15,682 nucleotides of DNA from a virus (IMGVR_UViG_2526164665_000024), one strand, 5' to 3'; shown: positions 3,371 to 15,682, counted from the first letter of the stretch. Numbers and translations: made by a program. Notes: generated from the sequence alone by a model not told the origin.

Positions 3371-3622
3371 TCATCCCACCGGGCATGGTGTGTTGGTGGA
3401 ATAAATCATTATGTGCCAGCCATCTCTGGTTGTTATTCGGCAGAAAAATTCACCGCTATATAACACAATGGCCTGCTGAATGAGCGCATCAGCCGCCCGT
3501 TCAACCGGATGTCTTTTATCAAAAAAGCAGATGATTTTTCGACATAACCACCGGGTAATAACAAATGCGCCGAAAAAGGATGTGATATATAAGCACCAGA
3601 ACAACAGAGAACTATTGTCCAT
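3371..3622 (-). CDS. small membrane protein, unknown function (AT-rich island gene 2)
   Basis: ATG 3622-3620 with AAGGAG RBS 7 nt upstream; N-terminal hydrophobic helix LLFWCLYITSFFGAFVITRWL; local GC clearly lower than flanking phage genes. Confidence 0.45.
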   Translation of the reverse strand: MDNSSLLFWCLYITSFFGAFVITRWLCRKIICFFDKRHPVERAADALIQQAIVLYSGEFFCRITTRDGWHIMIYSTNTPCPVG

Positions 3623-3809
3623 TATCTTTCTCCTTATTCACTCTTCTGCGGCATTCGGCACAGTCATCAGGGCTTTCAAATGTATCCGGCTCGCGATTAT
3701 GAGCCAGATATAACCACCGTCCACATATACTGATATTTTCGCCTGTTTTAAAAAAATGATGCTTCCTGGCCATTAGTGGCCGCGCCCATCCAGCGGGTAG
3801 ACTATTCAT
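3612..3809 (-). CDS. small Cys/His-containing protein, unknown function (AT-rich island gene 1)
   Basis: ATG 3809-3807 with GGAGGA RBS 7 nt upstream; C-x7-H ... C-x2-C spacing (ICGRWLYLAH...DDCAEC) could be a zinc ribbon; 11-nt overlap with the next gene, whose RBS it contains. Confidence 0.4.
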   Translation of the reverse strand: MNSLPAGWARPLMARKHHFFKTGENISICGRWLYLAHNREPDTFESPDDCAECRRRVNKEKDNGQ

Positions 3810-4134
3810 TTGCTTTATCCTCCATACTGGAGAGAATCATATGTATTAATGTCGGGCGTGGAGATATACGCATTTCATTAAGCGTCTGAAGGGCAGCAAC
3901 AGCTGCCTGTTTATCGGTGCCTTTGGCAACTTCAGCAAGAGAATGCACAATCCATAACGGGCTTAACGCTACGGCTGAATGCAGAATCATGTCATCCATA
4001 ATAATTTCTGGCATATCCCGTTTGTCACATTCTTTATCCATAAAAGAAACAATTTTTTCTGCATCTTCCGGTTTCATGCCTCCGGCGATGAGAATTTTAC
4101 GATATTCATAAGACGATCTTAATTCAATACTCAT
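3802..4134 (-). CDS. hypothetical protein (AT-rich island)
   Basis: 110-aa ORF; likely starts at second ATG (4134-4132) given AGGTG position; no recognised motif. Confidence 0.45.
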   Translation of the reverse strand: MSIELRSSYEYRKILIAGGMKPEDAEKIVSFMDKECDKRDMPEIIMDDMILHSAVALSPLWIVHSLAEVAKGTDKQAAVAALQTLNEMRISPRPTLIHMILSSMEDKANE

Positions 4135-4518: not shown

Positions 4519-4825
4519 TCCGGTAAAGCTGAAATATGGCACCAGTGCGTCACCTGTCCGTCCTCATCTTCAAGGCAGGCTCCGGTTTCTTCATCAATAA
4601 AAAGCCTTCATACCCCATATGGCCGATGCGCAGTTCCTGTTGGTCACCATACTGAACAATCAGCACGACAGCCTCCATATCAGGCGGGAAAGCATCATTC
4701 AGTGAATGCCAGGGATAACCGCGCAAATCCCCGAAATAAACACCGGTCAGCGTTCCGCCACAGACCGGCATTCCGACGGCACACACAAGGGGTTCATCTG
4801 ATTCAACAAATAATGTCGTTATCAT
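4515..4825 (-). CDS. hypothetical protein; frame broken by apparent 1-nt deletion in A-run 4599-4603 (plus strand)
   Basis: ORF 4550..4825 ends with an implausible tail; shifting one frame gives an acidic C-terminus ...GFFIDEETGACLEDEDGQVTHWCHISALPE and an ATGA overlap with the next gene. Start ATG 4825 overlaps upstream stop. Confidence 0.4.
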
Positions 4826-5372
4826 GGCATTAATTCCCGTAATACAACATCTTCGGCAGTCCGACGACGGTGATAAATAAAACTCACCGTGCCCTCGGAT
4901 AATTCAAATTTCTCGCCGATTTCCCTAAAGGTAAGACGCCGTGGTGATTCAGCATCCCGTAATTCACGAATAAGACGAACATCATCGTCAGGTATGCGGG
5001 TGAAGGGCAGCAACTCTCCGTATTTTTCATGCTTACGCCAATATATCGCGCCCGATTGTGGACAGAATCCCGGTCTCGCCCCAGATATTCTCCTATTTGC
5101 TTACCGGTCATTGTTCTGGCATTTTTTCGGATAAATTTATCTTCATCAGGTTTAAATCTGAGGCGTTTGCATTTGAGCAACTCCGGGTAAGTACCGCGTA
5201 ATAAAACAATCCGGTTATGTACACCCCAGAAACTTCTTTTTATCCTGACAGCAATATCCTTAACCGGGGTGGATGGATAAAGCGCAATCAGCAGCGCATC
5301 TTCTTCAGGTGTCCATGCGCGAACATGAGCGGGTGCACGGCCTTTTCTCCCCATGGGTTGTAATATCATCAT
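4822..5372 (-). CDS. HTH DNA-binding protein with Mor/C-like C-terminal domain; frame broken at T-run 5023-5027 (plus strand)
   Basis: N-terminal part (ORF 4884..5372 frame) has two W/F-x-x-E/D-E-D repeats with HTH-like segments (WTPEEDALLIAL..., FKPDEDKFIRKNARTMTGKQIGEYLGRDRDSVHNRARYIGV); C-terminal part (ORF 4822..5013 frame) LIRELRDAESPRRLTFREIGEKFELSEGTVSFIYHRRR resembles Mor/C HTH. An A6 run would fuse them; otherwise two genes. Strong AGGGGGTGA RBS before ATG 5372. Confidence 0.45.
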
Positions 5373-5375
5373 GCA

Positions 5376-5891
5376 TCACCCCCTGACTCGCTTTTCAGCA
5401 GCATAAAACTCATCAGACAGAATTTCGGTCATTTTCTGTTTTGCGGGTTTTACGCCGCACTGAAGGTAAATCACATCGTCAACGCAGAACCACTCCACAG
5501 GGCCAAACAGGATTGCCGAGAAATCAATGCCCAGCCAGAACAACAGTGCATCGGTTCTGGCATACGTGACGGGCGAATATTCACGCCACAGACTGTTAAG
5601 TTCGTCAGAGGCAACGCGCAGGGCTTTGGGAATACGTGATGTGCGCGGTGTGCAGCTCCAGCCATTCGACGCAGTTGGTTTTCGCCATAAATCACGATGA
5701 AAAGGATATTTGTCCTCCGTAAAACGCAGTCCCTTAAAACAAAAACCACTGATACTGAATTCAAATACCGACCGGCACGCAACATTCAGCACGGCCTCAA
5801 GGCGTTTCGCCTCATCTTTTACCGTCTGGCAGTCCTGCTGGTATTTTTGCCACGCAGCCAGCGCGGAAGGGTTTGATGTTTTAAAGAACAT
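5376..5891 (-). CDS. hypothetical early-region protein (171 aa)
   Basis: ATG 5891 overlaps upstream stop (TAATG) with GGAGGTG RBS; no recognised motif. Confidence 0.5.
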   Translation of the reverse strand: MFFKTSNPSALAAWQKYQQDCQTVKDEAKRLEAVLNVACRSVFEFSISGFCFKGLRFTEDKYPFHRDLWRKPTASNGWSCTPRTSRIPKALRVASDELNSLWREYSPVTYARTDALLFWLGIDFSAILFGPVEWFCVDDVIYLQCGVKPAKQKMTEILSDEFYAAEKRVRG

Positions 5892-6424
5892 TACGCCACC
5901 TCCGCTGATATCCCGGCAGGCGCGGCCGTCCGGTCAACAATCAGGTAACGCAGAACGCGCGAGGTGATATTCCAGCCGCTTAAACCGCAGATAATGACGC
6001 CCAGGCGGATGTCGATATACGACATCACAAACTGGGGCACGCCTTCTTTCATGGCCTGCTCATCAACTTCAGCCACCACATAAACGGTTTCACAGGTCAG
6101 CACGCCCTGAGCAAATTCCCACGCCATCGACGGAATATCATGCCCTTCAATCCACGGCAGGGATTTTCTGAAGCTGCACCACTGAACATCATCAGCCGCA
6201 GACTCCTGGCTGCATTTGCGACGAACCGGCTGCACCGGGCGGGGACGCGGAATATCATAAAAACCGTTACATTCCGTCAGCACGCCTGCATCAACCGCAT
6301 CACGCAGAAAATAAACCATGGAGGATGGCGGCATATTCATTTTTTCAGCCAGAATACCGCAGGTCAGACGTCCGTAAATACGCAGCCAGTTTTTAACCCC
6401 TTCAAGCACTTTTGCATCAATCAT
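5891..6424 (-). CDS. hypothetical early-region protein (177 aa), possible N-terminal winged-helix
   Basis: ATG 6424 with GGAGGAA RBS; N-terminal segment GRLTCGILAEKMNMPPSSMVYFLRDAVDAGVLTE looks wHTH-like (weak inference). Confidence 0.5.
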   Translation of the reverse strand: MIDAKVLEGVKNWLRIYGRLTCGILAEKMNMPPSSMVYFLRDAVDAGVLTECNGFYDIPRPRPVQPVRRKCSQESAADDVQWCSFRKSLPWIEGHDIPSMAWEFAQGVLTCETVYVVAEVDEQAMKEGVPQFVMSYIDIRLGVIICGLSGWNITSRVLRYLIVDRTAAPAGISAEVA

Positions 6425-6427
6425 GAA

Positions 6428-6970
6428 TTATTCCTCCGTCAGCGCCACATATTCAGAATGTTTAATCTCCTGGCATTCTTCAGGAATACCCCCTTTTATT
6501 TCCCTGCCATAAGTTCCTACTTTAAACACCACGCACAGGGCATCACGGGAGAGTGACGGGGTCCACCAGGAGTCCGTGTTAAACATGGAGGGGATTCTCA
6601 TTACCCCCAGCTTTTCACAGAGCCAGACAAGGAAATCAGGACGCTTTCTTAACTCGCGTTCAGCGGCTTCAACCATTGCGGCAATCGCCGGACCTTCAGG
6701 GCATGACTCATCAGGTCTGGCAATAAAGCACGGTCCGCCCCCGATAAAAGCCACATCATCGCGCTTACGCCAGCCCGCAGGCAGAGAACCAGAAAAATAA
6801 AACTCACTGATTACGTCCATGGCGAACGGCTTTAAGCGCAATCCGGCAGCGCCTGTATTTTTCAGTAATGCCCGAAGAATACTGTTGCGTAGCGGTAAAA
6901 CATCCCGCTGATATTCGGTTAAATATTTATTTGTGTACACTATGTCTAATTTGAAATAAAAATATGCCAT
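6428..6970 (-). CDS. hypothetical early-region protein (180 aa)
   Basis: ATG 6970 with AAGGAA RBS; first gene after the gam-downstream intergenic gap; no recognised motif. Confidence 0.5.
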   Translation of the reverse strand: MAYFYFKLDIVYTNKYLTEYQRDVLPLRNSILRALLKNTGAAGLRLKPFAMDVISEFYFSGSLPAGWRKRDDVAFIGGGPCFIARPDESCPEGPAIAAMVEAAERELRKRPDFLVWLCEKLGVMRIPSMFNTDSWWTPSLSRDALCVVFKVGTYGREIKGGIPEECQEIKHSEYVALTEE

Positions 6971-7067
6971 GTTTCCGATTCCTTATTTTCAGCTTTCAGG
7001 CGCAGGCAGTCCCCTGACGCGAGCGCCATAATTAAAACGATGTGATATTTAAAGATTTAATGTGGTG

Positions 7068-7597
7068 TTATTTATTCAGTCCGGCGTCCTGTTCAAAAGG
7101 CTCGACATAAAAACTTTCAGCGCCTTTATTCACCTTTATACCGGCAATGCCTTTCACCGCATCCGGCTCCGCCAGGACGGCTTCCTTGTTCACTTCCTCT
7201 TTCGTGCGGATGAATCGCTCAAGCCCCATAAGGCGCAGCATTTCAATCACGCCTTCCACATCACGGCTGACGCTGCATGATGGATTTCCCAGCCGCCATG
7301 ACACCGTGCCGGTGGTCAGATTGGCAGTTTTTGTTTTGCCGCCGTTCGTCAGCTCATCTCGGTTGGTTTTGCACCAGTCCTGAATCCCCTTAAAAAGCAC
7401 TTTGATTTCTTTTTAAGGTTTTCAATTTGCGGCGTATAACGGGCGGTGATTTCTGCCACTTCATCATTCATCGCCGTTTCCAGCCGCAGCGCCTCTCGCT
7501 GAATATCGCCCAGGGTGCGGATATCGCGGCTGACCTCTTCGCGGGTCTGCGGTGCAGCCTCGGCTGCGGCCTTTAATTTTGTAACGCGTTTTGCCAT
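7068..7597 (-). CDS. gam: Gam, host-nuclease inhibitor (Ku-like DNA end-binding protein); frame broken by apparent 1-nt deletion in T5 run at 7410-7414
   Basis: N-terminal ORF 7349..7597 and C-terminal ORF 7068..7400 together align with Mu Gam as I recall it (ASRLETEMNDAIAEIT ... GWCEANRDELTNGGKVKTANL ... LERLGLQRFIRTKQEINKEA ... PFEQEAG). Restoring one A in CTTAAAAAG gives continuous ...IENLKKEIKVLFKGIQDWCKTNRDELTNGG. Confidence 0.85.
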
Positions 7598-7608
7598 TTT
7601 GTTTTTCC

Positions 7609-7902
7609 TTATTGCAGTGTGCCTGATGCTTTATGCACGCGGTGGCGTTTAATGATGGCATCCGCCCCAAAAGCCTGTACAGATGCCTGAAATTCCGCTG
7701 AGAGAAACTGAATAATTTCAGGACTGTGATACTGGAGAATACTTACATAAACGTCACAGAGTGACGTCGGCCTGTTATTCGTATCACGTTCTGTTTTTAC
7801 ATCCACACCAATCTTTTCATGCACTTCAACACAGTCATTGCCTGCCGGTTTTTCGTCATGCGAAACATGCTTAAATTCAAAAATAACGCGTACTTTGCTC
7901 AT
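7609..7902 (-). CDS. hypothetical small protein, tandem paralog 2 (MSKVRVIFEFKH...)
   Basis: ATG 7902-7900 with AGGGGT RBS; N-terminus and internal pattern parallel the adjacent gene 7907..8179. Confidence 0.5.
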   Translation of the reverse strand: MSKVRVIFEFKHVSHDEKPAGNDCVEVHEKIGVDVKTERDTNNRPTSLCDVYVSILQYHSPEIIQFLSAEFQASVQAFGADAIIKRHRVHKASGTLQ

Positions 7903-8949: not shown

Positions 8950-9882
8950 TCACACCTGTGAGAGTAATTCAGGGTTGGTATAAACCTCTTTAAAGGCCGC
9001 ATTAATATGTTTTTCTGTCAGCGCCGCACCTTCACCGCTGGCGGTGAGCCACGCCTGGTTAAGCGTATGTGTCAGAACGCGTAACGCTCCCGGCTTTTCA
9101 GCGATAGCCTGCATGACGGCCAGCTCGGCCTCACCACTGATCCCCCACGCCCTGGCAATGGCCAGCACATCCGCCTTTTTGGCCTTGCGAAGTTGTTTTG
9201 TACGGGCAAGACGGCTGAACAGGCGCGATAAATCATCAAAGGCGCGGCGTCCACCTTTAAACAATCCGCGCGGGTTACCAATAAGCACCATCCCGATCCC
9301 CGTGGCGTCCTGAATTGCCCGGAGTTGCTCCAGACCGTCAATACCAAGATGATCCGCCTCATCCACAATCACCAGTCCACGCGTTCCCATCAGGCGACGG
9401 CGGATGGCGCGGGATAATGCCCCTTTGTTCGCGCGGGTGTAATCAATCCCCAGCGCATCGGCCAGCTCCAGCAGACACTCCGTGACGCTGGAGTGCGCGG
9501 GTGACAGGGTGATCATCCAGGTGTTTGGTTGCTCCTGGCAGTAATTACGGGCAGTGGCCGTTTTACCCACACCCGGTACGCCCACAATAACGTTAATACA
9601 GCCCATCAGACGAACCGCCTGAAACAGTGTGCGCAGCTCCTGGACTGTCTGCGTTTCCACAAACTGCGGCGGTTCCGGCAGTGCGCTTTGTTTATTCCAG
9701 TTCTCATACCAGGAACGCAGGGAAGCAGCCACAGCAGCGTTATCGCCTTTATATTTTCCCTTACGGAAAGCCGATAATGTGCCGTCGGAAATTCCCGCCT
9801 CTCTGGCGATGGCATACTGTGTCAGTACGCCGCCATCAATAAGTTCATCAATGGTCTTGATTACATCGTTAATATCAGTCAT
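8950..9882 (-). CDS. B: MuB-like AAA+ ATPase, transposition target-DNA activator
   Basis: 310 aa (Mu B is ~312); Walker A GVPGVGKT; N-terminal HTH-like region; directly downstream of transposase A; GAGAGG RBS before ATG 9882. Confidence 0.9.
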   Translation of the reverse strand: MTDINDVIKTIDELIDGGVLTQYAIAREAGISDGTLSAFRKGKYKGDNAAVAASLRSWYENWNKQSALPEPPQFVETQTVQELRTLFQAVRLMGCINVIVGVPGVGKTATARNYCQEQPNTWMITLSPAHSSVTECLLELADALGIDYTRANKGALSRAIRRRLMGTRGLVIVDEADHLGIDGLEQLRAIQDATGIGMVLIGNPRGLFKGGRRAFDDLSRLFSRLARTKQLRKAKKADVLAIARAWGISGEAELAVMQAIAEKPGALRVLTHTLNQAWLTASGEGAALTEKHINAAFKEVYTNPELLSQV

Positions 9883-9954: not shown

Positions 9955-10082
9955 CAGGCCAGCGGGTCATTTTCTTTTAATTTCGCTTCCAGCAACTGCA
10001 ATCCCCGCTGGAAATTACGCTCGTATTCTTCATCAGGTTCATCGTCAGCGACCGGTTGCTGAACGGTCACCGTATTACCCAC
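9954..10082 (-). CDS. small ORF in the A-B spacer (42 codons from GTG), or out-of-frame C-terminal extension of transposase A
   Basis: Frame of ORF 9954..10160 gives a protein-like acidic tail NTVTVQQPVADDEPDEEYERNFQRGLQLLEAKLKENDPLA; its upstream part overlapping A looks like out-of-frame junk. Frame relation to A is not a single-base deletion. Confidence 0.25.
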   Translation of the reverse strand: MGNTVTVQQPVADDEPDEEYERNFQRGLQLLEAKLKENDPLA

Positions 10083-12045
10083 TAGGGCGGTATATGTTTT
10101 CCAGCCAGGGCTCCTGCGGCTTGTGCTCCAGCACGTTGACAACCTCATCCTCGGCATCACGGATTTTTTCCTCTGCGCGTTTACGCATGCCTTTAAGGCG
10201 TTGCTGCTGTTTGTAGTATTCCGCGCTAACCGGGAAGGCTTCGCGTTTATTACCGTCCCATACCGCCTCGCAAATCACGCTGCCATCCAGGCGACGTACG
10301 GTAATTCGTTCGGCATCATGAATGTCATAGCTGATAAGCACCTTACGGCCATGCTCGTCACGCAGCTCGGGCGCGTAGTAAATATTATTCAGCCAGCGTA
10401 TTTCACAGCGTCTTACAGGGCGTTCCACCATCGGCCGGAACATATCCCGCAGCTCAACATCGGACAGCCATTCAATTTCCGTGTCCTCTTCCGCCAGGCG
10501 TTTTTTTCTGAACTCCGCCGGGCTGTAATGCTTGCCGTTCGGCTTCACCGGTAATTCATCGTGCGGCCGGTTGTTGTACCACTCAACACCATCACGAATG
10601 GCATCAATCAGTTCAGCCCAGGACGGTAAATCACGCATCGCTGACTGTTGCCGGGCGTTCAGCCGTTTGCCCTGTTGCAGGGCGGTAAATGCCGAGCGTA
10701 AATCGCGGTTGGTTTTGCGTAACGTCTCGCGATCTGCACCTTTCCCGAAATAGGTGCGGTATTTACGGGCTATGCGCATCGGTAATGTGCGGTTAAGCCG
10801 TTCGATAATGCCCCGTCCCTGCGGGTTACCGGCAATCCCGGTCGGGTGATTAATCCCCAGTCGCGGCAGTATCCCCACAACCTCCTTATCCAGGATGTCG
10901 GCGGTTTCCCCGGAGCCGTTATCCGAGTAATACAGAAACGGTTTGCCGTGATGGCGAATGCCGTGCTGTATGGCACCGGCTACGGCGAAAACATTTTCAG
11001 CCAGGTCAAGGCTCCAGCCCACCACAAAGCGCGTGCCACCGTCGATAACAAAGGTCACTTCCGGTGCAAATGGCCGACCGTGAACCGGGTGTGCGCATTT
11101 CAGCTTCATGCCGTGACCGTCACCAATCCAGACATAATTCACCGGCATTTTTGACCAGTCGCGGCGCGTGAATCCCTCAAGCTGGCGGTATTCACTGCCG
11201 GTCACCCGGCCTTTTTGTTTCACCACTTCCGGCAGTTTCTTCATTGCGCGGCGAATGGTGTCATAAGACGGCATGATATCGAGCATATAAGGCTCATCAG
11301 CGTGCCGGTGCTGCCATTCAGCGACAAAATCCTCGTAAGCCTCGGTCATTGGTCGGCCGTTTGACTGGCGATACTGCGCCAGAAATTCGGGCAGCCAGTT
11401 AATATCTTCGGCTTTTATTTCCTGGCGCTTACCCGGTGCCAGTAAAAGCAGGCGTTCAGCGGCGTTCTGCGCCTTGTTAAAGGCCGCAATCCAGCGTTTC
11501 AGCGTGATTTCACTTAACGCGCGGCTGTTTCCCTTTTTGGCGTTCGCCGTCTCAACCATTGCCACAATGCGCTCGTCCAGCTGCGAACGTGCCAGGTTGT
11601 CAACGATAAACCGGATAGCCTTCGCACAGCTGAAACCAGGTTGTTGCGCGACTTTCAGAACTTCGCTGACGATCGCGATTCGTGCATCAGCCACCTGGCG
11701 CTGGTTTTCAGTCAGGGCATTAAGGCGTTCGACCATCAGTTGTGGTGATCCGCGATATGCCTCCACCGCATCAACCACGGCAGGCGAGCGTCTGGCCTTT
11801 GTCACCACCGGAGCCGGTGATTCATCGACTTTTTGCGTCATCAGTTGCAGGGCGTAGCGTTCACGTAATGCCTGCTGCGTCACTTCAGGTAAACAGTCGA
11901 TGCTGTATTCAGTTGCTTTAGAGCCTGAGCGACGACGGGAACAACAGCTTTTCCCTTGTACGTAACGTTGTAATGCCTGGCGAATACCTTTTGTTGTAGC
12001 AGGCATTCCGGGCGCGCCAATCAGTTCTTTTGCAATGACATACAT
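10075..12045 (-). CDS. A: MuA-like DDE transposase
   Basis: 656 aa (Mu A is 663); N-terminal enhancer/end-binding domain resembling Mu A (GSKATEYSIDCLPE vs Mu GGKAIEYN..SLP); DDE-region motifs WIGDGHGM and YYSDNGSGE; gene order ner-A-B. Confidence 0.92.
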   Translation of the reverse strand: MYVIAKELIGAPGMPATTKGIRQALQRYVQGKSCCSRRRSGSKATEYSIDCLPEVTQQALRERYALQLMTQKVDESPAPVVTKARRSPAVVDAVEAYRGSPQLMVERLNALTENQRQVADARIAIVSEVLKVAQQPGFSCAKAIRFIVDNLARSQLDERIVAMVETANAKKGNSRALSEITLKRWIAAFNKAQNAAERLLLLAPGKRQEIKAEDINWLPEFLAQYRQSNGRPMTEAYEDFVAEWQHRHADEPYMLDIMPSYDTIRRAMKKLPEVVKQKGRVTGSEYRQLEGFTRRDWSKMPVNYVWIGDGHGMKLKCAHPVHGRPFAPEVTFVIDGGTRFVVGWSLDLAENVFAVAGAIQHGIRHHGKPFLYYSDNGSGETADILDKEVVGILPRLGINHPTGIAGNPQGRGIIERLNRTLPMRIARKYRTYFGKGADRETLRKTNRDLRSAFTALQQGKRLNARQQSAMRDLPSWAELIDAIRDGVEWYNNRPHDELPVKPNGKHYSPAEFRKKRLAEEDTEIEWLSDVELRDMFRPMVERPVRRCEIRWLNNIYYAPELRDEHGRKVLISYDIHDAERITVRRLDGSVICEAVWDGNKREAFPVSAEYYKQQQRLKGMRKRAEEKIRDAEDEVVNVLEHKPQEPWLENIYRPSG

Positions 12046-12046
12046 A

Positions 12047-12295
12047 TCATGACGCCTTTCTCATATAGCTCTTAACCTGGTATCGACTGGGCCAGATTTC
12101 TTCAGGCGATACCCCAAGAGCATCAGCAATTATTTGCTGATACGGTCGGCAAGGAGTACGTAATACGCTTTTCAGCGAATCCCTGCTGTAACCAGCCTTT
12201 AAAGATAAAGAGCGCAGTGATAAGCCAGCCATGTGTAAGCGCGCCTTGATGATTTCAGGCGGCCAATCGTGATCTGAAACTTCTCTTCTACTCAT
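12047..12295 (-). CDS. ner: Ner-like DNA-binding early regulator
   Basis: 82 aa; DWPPEIIKARLHMAGLSLRSLSLKAGY...QQIIADALGVSPEEIWPSRYQ aligns closely with Mu Ner as recalled (DWHRADVIAGLKKRKLSLSALSRQFGY...EQIIANALETKPEVIWPSRYQ); GAGGAAG RBS; directly upstream of A. Confidence 0.85.
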   Translation of the reverse strand: MSRREVSDHDWPPEIIKARLHMAGLSLRSLSLKAGYSRDSLKSVLRTPCRPYQQIIADALGVSPEEIWPSRYQVKSYMRKAS

Positions 12296-12485
12296 ACTTC
12301 CTCTATTCTAAAAAGTTACCCGCGCGGATATTCGTGCGGATATCTGCACGGGTAAATAATGCATCACTAAAAATACCAAATCAAGGTATTTTTGGTATTT
12401 TGGCTAATTTTTGCTTTTGTCCTTATTTTTCAATTGGATAAATAGAAAGAAACCTTTCCTTAGAAAAGCACCAAGAGGTATCTTT
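12296..12485. promoter_or_regulatory. divergent promoter/operator region between ner and the repressor gene
   Basis: 190-bp AT-rich intergenic region between divergent genes; 7-bp inverted repeat TTACCCG/CGGGTAA (12316-12322, 12349-12355) enclosing direct repeats GCGGATAT (12324-12331, 12336-12343); 11-bp perfect palindrome arms AAAATACCAAA/TTTGGTATTTT (12370-12380, 12391-12401) with tandem GGTATTTT repeats; AAGAGG RBS at 12472-12477. Confidence 0.55.
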
Positions 12486-13016
12486 ATGTCGCAGGGAAAA
12501 GAACCTGTTATTGAACGTATTGGAATGCTTACAAAGCGCTACCCTTCAAGAAGTGCAGCTGCCAGAGCGTGGGGAATCAATATCAACACATTAAACAGCT
12601 ATTTCAAGGGAGGACAAACACAACCAGCCCCCAGAGAAAGTATCCTTATACGAATTTCTGAAAGTGAAGGAGTTAGTCTTGAGTGGCTTAAAGAGGGCAA
12701 GGGTGAATCACCAAACGATGTTGGTATTTGTGGTAATTTTGGTTGTTCTGGTGATAAGGGAGATCAACTTACACAGATGCTTTCATTCCTTACGAAAGAC
12801 GAACGAGAACAGTTAACCAATCTCCTTGCTCGCAAAGGTGTAGAGACGGTTCTGACACTGCTGGATAAAGAAAACCAGGATTTATTACAACTAGAAGGCA
12901 GGAAGCGCCTGGCTGCGTTGATGATTGTAGATATGCCAGACGATTGCGTCAGAGAGATTTTGGAAAAAACCGAGACAAGTAGGCAATCAAATCCGGTAGA
13001 ATCTAAAGCGGGTTAG
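12486..13016 (+). CDS. prophage repressor, HTH DNA-binding (Mu c-like by position)
   Basis: ATG 12486 with AAGAGG RBS (the ORF-track start at 12411 has none); HTH-like SRSAAARAWGININTLNSYFKG; transcribed divergently from ner-A-B, the position of Mu c. Confidence 0.65.
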   Translation: MSQGKEPVIERIGMLTKRYPSRSAAARAWGININTLNSYFKGGQTQPAPRESILIRISESEGVSLEWLKEGKGESPNDVGICGNFGCSGDKGDQLTQMLSFLTKDEREQLTNLLARKGVETVLTLLDKENQDLLQLEGRKRLAALMIVDMPDDCVREILEKTETSRQSNPVESKAG

Positions 13017-13260: not shown

Positions 13261-14446
13261 GTTACATACTGCCGGAACAACCAGCAAACGGGCATTGTGT
13301 TCTGAAATCCAGGCTATTGATTCAACGTCAGCGACAGATCTGCGCTGTAAAAGAACTTGTAAAACAACGTAATAGAATTATCCGGAATGGTGGCGACTAT
13401 GCACTAGAACACCACAATTTCGCTCTCTCGGTAAGGCACTGTCACAGCATTCAACAGAATGTGACTTGCCAGATTTATTAGCGCCACCAGATGTTTAACC
13501 GGGTAACCACGACCCAGTCGGGGATATATTCCATCTTCTCGCTGACATCATCAAGAATAAAAAGGTTTATCACACTCAGAGCAACGTTCTTCAGCAGGCG
13601 GGATAATTCTTCAACATTTAGAAGATGTGTTATTAAAGGCATACAAACTGGACGTATTGTATTTTCTTTTGGTGGTTGACCTAAGGTAGCAGTTTATCCT
13701 GATGCGCTGAGATTTCTGTAATATCTACGTCAACATTCTCCTCGAATAGAAAATGCAGCCCCGGCAAGTGATTCACATTTTTTAACAAAACGTTGTTAGC
13801 GTGCCATTTTCAGAAGCTCTCCAAGAAAGCGAATTCTTTTCTCAAATTCTGCATTCTCAGACACAGCTTTCTACTCCATGGTAATGGCCCAAATACGAAG
13901 TTGCTCAGGATCATTAGTGGTGCTGAGAAGTTAAATAACCATGCGGAGTACCACTCGTCATCACGTATTTATATATCATGAAGCTATTGTTGTGTTTTGT
14001 ACATCAGTAGATATATTCTGATATACTCCTTTTGCTAGACATAACCTTTCACCTGCTTGCAAAGCTTCTGTGTTCTGACATTGCCAAATTGTTGCAATTC
14101 TGTATCCAGCCTTCTTTCAGTCATAGCTTCGGGCCGCGATAAGACTCACTGATCTGACCCTGATTCCTCTTGCAGACTTTATAGACCAATTAAAATGCAG
14201 TTTCTGCAGGTCAACGTCTGACCATCATTGTCATCACTCTGGCCATTAGAGTAACCTTCTGCATTCATCCTTTTGTAAAAAGTTTATGTCAGTATCAGCA
14301 ATTAACCGGACCTGATACTGATATGAGTCTTACCGCATATACGGTCAATTTCAGCAATTAATTACATTATCCACGCCAAAGTGTTTGTCATCGCAATGAT
14401 GGTACCTTCTTTCAGACACCATTTTTTCAACTCCGTTTTCCACGGA

Positions 14447-14471
14447 CCGCACTCTTATGTCAAGAGTGCGG
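14447..14471. repeat. perfect 10-bp-stem hairpin (CCGCACTCTT-atgtc-AAGAGTGCGG) directly abutting the IS3 terminus
   Basis: Read directly; last base of the stem is 14471 and the IS3 terminal TGATCC starts at 14472. No adjacent T/U tract on either strand. Confidence 0.6.
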
Positions 14472-14501
14472 TGATCCTACCCACGTAATATGGACACAGG
14501 C

Positions 14502-15324
14502 CTAAGCGAGGTTCTGGTTTTCAAATTGTTCCGGACTGAGGCCGCCACACCAACTGTGCCGCCGCCACCGATTGTAATCACATTCGATATAATTAAACAC
14601 CGTTGCCCGCATTATTTCCCGGCTGATAAAGTGTTCTCCATGGATACATTCCACTTTCAGCGAATGAAAGAAGCTTTCCACGCAGATTATGCCGCTTCAG
14701 TTGCGCCTGATAATCTGCTGAACAGTACTGGCCTCCACGGTCCGTGTGAACGATAACGTTCCGGGGCCTCTTACGCCGCCATAGCGCCATCTGCAGGGCA
14801 TCGCAGGCCAGTTGCGCCGTCATGCGTGGCGACATTGACCAGCCAATAACGGCACGTGACTACAGGTCAATGACCACTGCCAGATACAGCCAGCCTTCAT
14901 CTGTACGTAAGTACGTGATGTCTCCTGCCCACTTCTGGTTCGGGCCACTGGCGTAAAAATCCTGCTCCAACAGATTTTCTGACACAGGCAGGCCGTGTGC
15001 GCGGTAGCTGACCGGGCTGAACTTCCGGGAGGCCTTTGCCCTCAGTCCCTGACGGCGCAGGCTTGCCGCCACGGTTTTTACGTTAAAGGGGTAACCCTGA
15101 GCACGCAGTTCATCCGTCAGGCGTGGGGCACCGTAACGCTGTTTTGACCGGGTAAAAGCCGCGAGGACAACGCTGTCGCAGTGTTGGCGGAACTGCTGAC
15201 GCGTGCTTATCCTTGTCCGCCGCTGACACCACGTATACCAGCCGCTGCGGGCCACCCGGAGCACGCGGCACATTGCTTTGATGCTGAACTCAGCCTGATG
15301 TTTTTCAATAAAGACATACTTCAT
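14502..15324 (-). pseudogene. insF: IS3 orfB transposase (DDE), inactivated by an in-frame TAG and a 44-bp deletion
   Basis: Matches IS3 Orf[22 protein letters not shown]... up to ...LAVVIDL, then TAG (14860-14862) where I recall Trp (TGG); later ...KRHNLRG runs directly into [16 protein letters not shown]... in another frame, i.e. ~15 codons (SMSAKGCCYDNAC) missing between two CTGCGTGG repeats (junction ~14678-14685). Confidence 0.85.
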
Positions 15325-15619
15325 TTCAGGCGCTTCGCGAAGTATGTCGCGGCCTTTTGGAGGATAGCCAGCTCTTCATCCCGTTCTGCCAGCTGGCGTT
15401 TGAGACGTGCAATCTCGGTAGACATCTCCAGTTCACGTTCAGAAGACGTCTGCTGATTTTGCTGTTTACTGCGCCAGTTGTAGAGCTGTGATTCATACAG
15501 GCTGAGTTCACGGGCTGCGGCAGTAACACCGATGCGTTCAGCAAGCTTCAGGGCTTCACTGCGAAATTCAGGCGAATGCTGTTTACGGGGTTTTTACTGG
15601 TTGATACTGTTTTTGTCAT
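15321..15619 (-). pseudogene. insE: IS3 orfA (HTH transposase subunit), frameshifted by 1-nt deletion in homopolymer at 15591-15595
   Basis: Translation MTKTVSTSK then shift; canonical IS3 OrfA as recalled is MTKTVSTSKKPRKQHSPEFRSEALKLAERIGV...; window has AAAAACCCC where A6 is expected; downstream frame gives ...[37 protein letters not shown] with TGA overlapping orfB ATG. Confidence 0.85.
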
Positions 15620-15682
15620 GTGAGTCACCTCTGACTGAGAGTTTACTCACTTAGCCGCGTGTCCACTATTGCTGGGTAAGAT

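Follow-up and report, generated by a model that had tools for sequence, protein, structure and literature searches.

In this work we analysed three minus-strand genes at positions 5376–6970 of the viral contig IMGVR_UViG_2526164665_000024 (15,682 nucleotides (nt), called the window below), which lie after gam in the early region of a Mu-like prophage. They are named here, in the order in which they are read, g1, gp11 and gp12, the last two after their Mu counterparts (Table 1). The explanation that we consider rather probable is that they form a slice of the early operon of an Sp18-type Mu-like prophage, made of three conserved, individually dispensable accessory genes, with gp11 as the core and with g1 in a swappable slot. 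The three genes are translationally coupled, as is almost every gene of this operon. They do not make up an obligate system of three parts: gp11 is the fixed member, and gp12 (often present) and g1 are optional neighbours. An earlier note on this DNA had described, after gam and in the semi-essential region of a Mu-like transposable phage, three open reading frames (ORFs) of unknown function. That description is confirmed, including coordinates, lengths and the minus strand of all three; its proposal that the coupled trio acts as one system was not borne out.

The three ORFs are judged to be real genes rather than chance ORFs, because full-length homologues of each are found in many Mu-like phages and prophages, and because of their ratios of non-synonymous to synonymous substitutions (dN/dS) against close relatives, which are 0.13–0.18 for gp11, 0.14–0.19 for gp12 and, from few substitutions (9–12.5 synonymous), 0.41–0.63 for g1. 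Sequence comparison identifies the middle gene as the Mu gp11 (Mup11) orthologue; in the Mu record, gp11 is a merger of the old E10, E11 and E12 reading frames. The two proteins share 119 of 177 residues (67%) over the full length including the N-terminal domain (expect value (E) 2e-82), they are alike in size (177 vs 176 amino acids (aa)), and both genes are located after gam and directly before gp12. The Pfam model PF25754 Gp11_C (“Phage Mu Gp11 C-terminal domain”) is matched with 132.8 bits, for a cut-off of 27 (E 5.6e-39), by residues 90–167, which cover profile positions 1–78 of 78; the PHROG family is phrog_1949. The two phages differ upstream of gp11, which in Mu is directly preceded by the gam intergenic region, whereas here g1 intervenes.

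The third gene is likewise assigned as the orthologue of Mu gp12 (Mup12, formerly E13), with 92 of 169 residues identical (54%) over the full length (E 2e-68) and a match to phrog_2314 (E 7.4e-84). A 1-nt stop/start overlap with gp11 is present in both phages (at 6954 in Mu, where gp11 ends and gp12 begins), but the gene that comes next is gp13 in Mu and a 183-aa homologue of Mu gp9/E8 here. The Pfam family PF26885 is a precomputed label on homologues that are 47–95% identical, and a local Pfam search gave no match for the window protein or for Mu gp12. In phage SfMu (L003, NC_027382) an unannotated gp12 homologue lies at 3593–4103, split by a frameshift (profile positions 1–19 and 19–171 are in different frames), and this accounts for a 514-bp gap in the annotation of that phage.

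We place g1 (phrog_2260) as a divergent member of the small DUF5420 superfamily, because the members of its profile match the Pfam model of that family (PF17457). The profile of g1 and its relatives retrieved only 27 representative clusters among 1.84 billion proteins; of the 26 members that were aligned, 19 are hit by PF17457 (best E 9.3e-28). g1 by itself stays below the gathering score of the model (26 bits) and has no Pfam match up to E 1; a 37%-identical relative (P0014) scores just 15 bits. A PD..EG motif and a strongly conserved extreme C-terminal tail, SE(F/Y)(I/V)ALTEE, are common to g1 and DUF5420. No catalytic residues are conserved across the DUF5420 alignment, in which only G93, Y5, F113 and the C-terminal SEF-ALTEE tail are kept. 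The slot between gam and the gp11 counterpart is likewise filled by a g1 homologue in SfMu (where this homologue is numbered gp11; 41% identity; “DUF5420 family protein” in RefSeq) and in Yersinia phage vB_YpM_3 (gene 11). These proteins resemble g1 in size (182–184 aa vs 180) and in the C-terminal tail, and the difference is that g1 alone misses the DUF5420 model, which its profile neighbours reach. There is no g1 counterpart in Mu, D108 or Yersinia phage vB_YpM_5, in which gp11 directly follows the gam intergenic region. The AlphaFold2 model of g1 (predicted local distance difference test (pLDDT) 88, predicted template modelling score 0.80) matched by Foldseek only unnamed viral proteins of 178–196 aa in BFVD (template modelling score 0.71–0.73, E down to 5e-9).

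These gene families were already known: they have been hypothetical proteins in Mu and in Escherichia coli O157 Sp18 for years, they have Pfam and PHROG entries, and the window copies are 93–98% identical to database entries. Our result is mostly a clarification of catalogued families. The PHROG label of all three is unknown function; none of the three proteins matched PADLOC defence-system or NCBIfam models up to E 0.1, and a search of Protein Data Bank (PDB) chains by sequence, with the proteins singly and with a gp11 profile, returned noise only (e.g. MIF and PnuC at E >0.2). We found no functional data in the literature for Mu gp11 or gp12, DUF5420, the genes of the semi-essential early region or the SfMu counterparts. 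For the earlier note, clear homology of all three to Mu E-region proteins of established function would have refuted its proposal; such homology holds for gp11 (E10–E12) and gp12 (E13), which are orthologous to Mu proteins, but these do not have an established function.

The dispensability of the flanking genes is seen when loci are compared. Loci were collected with gp11, g1 and gp12 as seeds, and 82 of them had enough flanking sequence. All four arrangements occur: g1, gp11 and gp12 are together in 35 of the 82 loci, gp11 and gp12 in 25, g1 and gp11 in 8, and gp11 is alone in 14. In the latter loci no DUF5420-like or gp12-like ORF was detected within 5 kb, even with relaxed thresholds, and unrelated small genes come after gp11. 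Within the window's own gp11 cluster (at least 95% identity), g1 is present in 18 loci and missing in 9. When the flanking genes are present they are next to gp11, which adjoins g1 in 16/16 g1-seeded loci and gp12 in 57/58 gp12-seeded loci. The sole locus with gp12 and without gp11 is a viral contig (L175, 328–1112), in which the first 77 residues of a g1 homologue are directly followed by gp12, gp11 being deleted.

The distribution of the three genes bears on whether they could be a single three-component system, such as a complex for host takeover or against nucleases, that works only with all three products. Several features fit such a system: the 3-nt spacer and the 1-nt overlap with embedded ribosome sites, the fact that the triple is the commonest single arrangement, and the rarity, among enterobacterial Mu-like phages, of g1 or gp12 at a distance from gp11. 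Nevertheless, one or both flanking genes are missing in 47 of the 82 loci, viable phages that are well studied carry subsets (gp11 and gp12 only in Mu and D108, g1 and gp11 only in Yersinia phage vB_YpM_3), near-identical prophages vary in the presence and the allele of g1, and the neighbouring genes are coupled too. The three genes are not co-inherited as a set across Mu-like loci, and this lack of co-occurrence, which the earlier note had named as a refutation of its proposal, makes a three-component system very unlikely; the idea of a three-gene system can be dropped.

Inspection of the junctions also shows that coupling does not single out the trio. The TAA stop of g1 (6430–6428) is separated by a 3-nt spacer from the ATG of gp11 at 6424, and the gp11 stop and the gp12 start share 1 nt in a TAATG at 5893–5889, as read from the sequence. 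The earlier note had proposed that each of the three genes has a strong ribosome binding site embedded in the end of the preceding gene. This is the case for gp11 and gp12 (Table 1), but g1 is not coupled to gam: it starts 97 nt downstream of gam, with a weaker AAGGA site (6984–6980) that is intergenic and outside gam. Conversely, coupling extends beyond the trio, as the next ORF starts at 5372, 3 nt past the gp12 stop, with a GGGGG run inside gp12. An annotated relative (99.7–99.8% identical) has 17 junctions from B to mor, of which 15 measure −11 to +15 nt; the sole larger gaps are gam–g1 (97 nt) and gemA–mor (69 nt). Tight spacing is a trait of the whole early operon and is not peculiar to the trio. 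No promoter-like site and no minus-strand terminator were predicted in 4800–7700; the trio is therefore presumably co-transcribed with its neighbours from the early promoter.

The g1 slot was surveyed in prophages whose gp11 is 93–98% identical to that of the window, and three options were observed. The first is a window-type g1 allele (91–98% identical), the second a DUF5420-type allele of 189–192 aa that is just 23–24% identical, and the third a mini-ORF of 14 codons (MKYVYIVINNVVGK) whose end lies just ahead of the gp11 start. In locus L010 (~1080–1126) this mini-ORF, MKYVYIVINNVVGK, replaces g1 and ends 2 nt ahead of the gp11 start codon, and it may thereby preserve translational coupling into gp11. 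The same 148-nt gap between gam and gp11 is present in the g1-less loci L016, L018, L021, L023, L024, L027, L030–L032 and L044, the base-by-base reading being that of L010 only. Because alleles are swapped and because dN/dS is higher for g1 than for the two other genes, the slot shows the pattern of a fast-turnover, cassette-like accessory locus.

Another reading takes the three products as independent counter-defence or host-takeover proteins, each inhibiting a host factor in the manner of Gam; the exchange of alleles in the g1 slot would then reflect an arms race with variable host defences. Besides kil, gam, sot and gemA/B, the Mu semi-essential region is reported to contain functions defined genetically, among them arm and cim (PMC4553209), and the three genes adjoin gam within this region of host-directed functions. 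The cassette-like replacement or loss of g1 between near-identical prophages, its higher dN/dS and the DUF5420 alignment devoid of conserved catalytic residues are in agreement with this proposal. Like the trio, gam belongs to the early operon and to the semi-essential region, and it is the upstream neighbour of g1, but Gam has no similarity in sequence or fold to any of the three proteins and is separated from them by the 97-nt gap. Moreover, no similarity to any characterised inhibitor was found, gp11 and gp12 are under ordinary purifying selection, the g1 ratio comes from few substitutions, and turnover of accessory genes in phage early regions is common regardless of function. We therefore regard three independent inhibitors as possible, if on the unlikely side.

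The two genes that flank gp11 may have a common origin. The AlphaFold2 models of g1 and gp12, two independent predictions, show the same order of elements, namely a strand, a long helix, beta hairpins, two helices, a beta hairpin, a strand and a terminal helix. g1 and gp12 did not match each other by BLASTP or with a shallow profile. When a broadened DUF5420 alignment was compared with the gp12 alignment by hhalign, the match was end-to-end (158 columns, score 23.6, E 0.005); this score was reached by none of 200 column shuffles (mean 13, max 21.2) and by one of 200 block shuffles, and reversed profiles and gp11, used as controls, scored 10–13.6 over 16–36 columns. Along this sequence-only alignment the two models have the same DSSP state at 69% of positions, compared with 13–50% for shifted registers. 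From the order of elements, the hhalign match and the DSSP agreement, we conclude that g1 and gp12 are quite probably distant paralogues with one alpha/beta fold.

This putative paralogy raises the possibility of a two-component module, in which gp11 would work with a partner of the DUF5420/gp12 fold, g1 (upstream of gp11) and gp12 (downstream) being paralogous and partly redundant, binding to gp11 and tuning the DNA binding or the target choice of the latter. In line with such a module, at least one partner is directly beside gp11 in 68 of the 82 loci, the partners are tied to gp11 in this phage group, as seen in the g1- and gp12-seeded loci, and coupling at both junctions would help to keep the amounts of the products matched. 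However, the 14 loci with gp11 alone have no partner within 5 kb, a distant DUF5420 member exists without gp11 (see below), and synteny within a narrow lineage is weak evidence of physical interaction; we consider this module unlikely.

To return to the reading that we favour, accessory genes with gp11 as their core, the gp11 protein can be pictured as a DNA-binding protein in which a small C-terminal domain follows an ArsR-like winged helix; its target would be DNA of the phage or of the host, at an early stage of lytic growth. The earlier note had suggested that the middle gene may begin with a winged helix, and it is supported in that residues 23–51 (GILAEKMNMPPSSMVYFLRDAVDAGVLTE) resemble a winged-helix recognition unit: they are 52% identical, over 29 residues, to the helix–turn–helix and recognition helix of a 112-aa alphaproteobacterial regulator, which itself matches Pfam HTH_20 and the ArsR family. 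These residues thus align with the helix–turn–helix of ArsR/SmtB-type regulators (HTH_20/HTH_5), from which gp11 differs by its extra, unrelated C-terminal Gp11_C domain. Pfam helix–turn–helix models stay below threshold on gp11, as described below, and helix–turn–helix proteins are absent from the PDB matches of the gp11 profile search; an ArsR-like winged helix at the N-terminus of gp11 is plausible but unproven. A scan of GTDB with gp11 gave one true relative beyond E. coli and Salmonella, in Citrobacter braakii, the remaining matches reflecting generic ArsR helix–turn–helix similarity. Among the cysteines of gp11, C22, C83 and C111 are invariant and C52 nearly so, in relatives that are all at least 58% identical, an alignment too shallow to interpret. 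As for g1 and gp12, the lack of conserved catalytic residues makes them most likely binders; they would act by binding to gp11 or to a host factor, and the process modulated in this way might be host takeover, Mu replication or counter-defence. A variable host target would be suggested by the rapid turnover of g1 alleles.

Several points weigh against this reading. No Pfam helix–turn–helix model passes its threshold on gp11, the best being HTH_10 (E 0.18), and the ArsR match came through a pattern scan, so that its E-value is not independent. For the paralogy of g1 and gp12, the profile score is weak (hhalign probability 6.8%) and the gp12 model reaches a pLDDT of only 68. That g1 and gp12 lie next to gp11 may be due to common descent within a narrow phage group and not to function. 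Finally, a metagenomic phage contig of high guanine-plus-cytosine content (L199, 4749–5905) encodes a typical DUF5420 protein of 187 aa, ending in KKSEFIALTEED, with no gp11 homologue near; 3 nt after this gene comes a 196-aa ORF that by eye resembles an HD-domain phosphohydrolase. This arrangement indicates that DUF5420 is not linked to gp11 outside enterobacterial Mu-like phages.

No assignment of the Mu functions arm and cim to ORFs is known to us, and the map position of arm is between gam and gem; for these reasons gp11 and gp12 are candidates for arm/cim, which is a lead and not a result. A broader proposal would combine these elements: gp11 (winged helix plus Gp11_C) and one or two partners, paralogous and of the DUF5420/gp12 fold, would constitute a hitherto unrecognised modular early-phage device, in which the exchange of g1 between prophages that are otherwise nearly identical would retarget the device against variable host factors, and which would be a counter-defence or host-takeover module or the basis of arm/cim. 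We advance it as a speculation and hold it to be decidedly unlikely. The new points are modest: a fixed gp11 is accompanied by an optional gp12 and by a cassette-like DUF5420 slot, and the two flanking proteins are probably of one fold.

Table 1. Features of the window, in the order in which the early operon is read (positions counted from the first letter of the window)
Feature	Position	Strand	Remarks
Repressor (c)	12411–13016	plus	Mu-like prophage gene order
ner	12047–12295	minus	Mu-like prophage gene order
Transposase A	10075–12045	minus	Mu-like prophage gene order
B	8950–9882	minus	Mu-like prophage gene order
gam (host-nuclease inhibitor)	7068–7597	minus	Pfam PF07352 on both pieces (7349–7597, 7068–7400)
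gam–g1 intergenic region	6971–7067	minus	97 nt; holds the g1 AAGGA site, 6980–6984
g1	6428–6970	minus	180 aa; gene in the variable slot between gam and gp11
Shine–Dalgarno GGAGGA of gp11	6432–6437	minus	within the last codons of g1; read from sequence
gp11 orthologue	5891–6424	minus	177 aa; middle gene
Shine–Dalgarno GGAGGTG of gp12	5897–5903	minus	within the 3' end of gp11; read from sequence
gp12 orthologue	5376–5891	minus	171 aa; third gene
Fourth coupled gene	4822–5372	minus	phrog_323, E 1.3e-36; Mu gp9/E8 homologue (“D5-like regulator”)

The stretch between gam and g1 is conserved between Sp18-type phages and Mu, as TTTTAATTATGGCGC...GCGCCTGAAA; it also reads TTTTAATTATGGCGC..CGTCAGGGGACTGC.TGCGCCTGAAA, with a GGCGC/GCGCC stem. 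In an alignment with Mu and a g1-less relative, it is kept whichever gene comes next, g1 or gp11. Its predicted RNA fold is ordinary (z −0.25), and neither a promoter-like or terminator-like site nor an Rfam match was found in it; it is possibly a protein-binding site.

The gene that follows gp12 encodes in relatives a 183-aa DNA-binding protein; it is intact in one of them (L004) and is split here by a one-base deletion near 5022. It differs from its Mu homologue gp9/E8, which is only 99 aa long and lies upstream of gam, that is, on the opposite side of gam. gam is also split into two ORFs in the window, by a one-base deletion in a T-run near 7409; it is intact, with 176 aa, in a relative that is 99.7–99.8% identical to the window. 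Relative to an E. coli prophage of 99.7% identity, the window contains ten single-base indels (1944, 1961, 2654, 3178, 3341, 3403, 4598, 5022, 7409 and 10083), which go together with a transposase A ORF of reduced length (656 vs 696 aa) and with broken ORFs in the mor/gemA-like region. Most of them shorten a homopolymer run and none falls in 5376–6970, and they look like sequencing or assembly errors rather than prophage decay.

These indels could suggest that the three ORFs are chance or decaying reading frames in a degraded prophage, as several apparent frameshifts affect nearby genes (gam, the transposase, mor and others). The block of the three genes is free of them, dozens of phages, plaque-forming ones included, have intact full-length versions of all three ORFs, and dN/dS is well under 1 for gp11 and gp12. 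Decaying frames are thus extremely improbable, and a trio in a decaying prophage was rejected.

The window carries the left third of a Mu-like prophage in minus-strand reading. After B come a run of small genes, gam, the three genes studied here, further small genes, a gemA-like gene, mor and a lysozyme gene. At least 80% of the window is present in 127 complete E. coli genomes, with O157:H7, O157 and O111:H8 strains among those listed, and the nearest phage records (93–95% identity) are Mu-like phages sitting inside Shiga toxin-converting phages. Because of its Mu-like organisation and its presence in O157:H7 genomes, the prophage is taken to be of the Sp18 type of Mu-like prophage of enterohaemorrhagic E. 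coli. Sp18 of strain Sakai is predicted to be intact, and its DNA is packaged efficiently (PMC2669165). In the window the prophage ends at about 13266, and host DNA occupies 13267–15682. The same prophage end adjoins a truncated gene for an Ig-like-domain protein in one relative, and the host flank matches autotransporter, IS3 and ampH annotations in other genomes. The flank differs between genomes, and the insertion site therefore varies by strain, as expected of a transposing phage.

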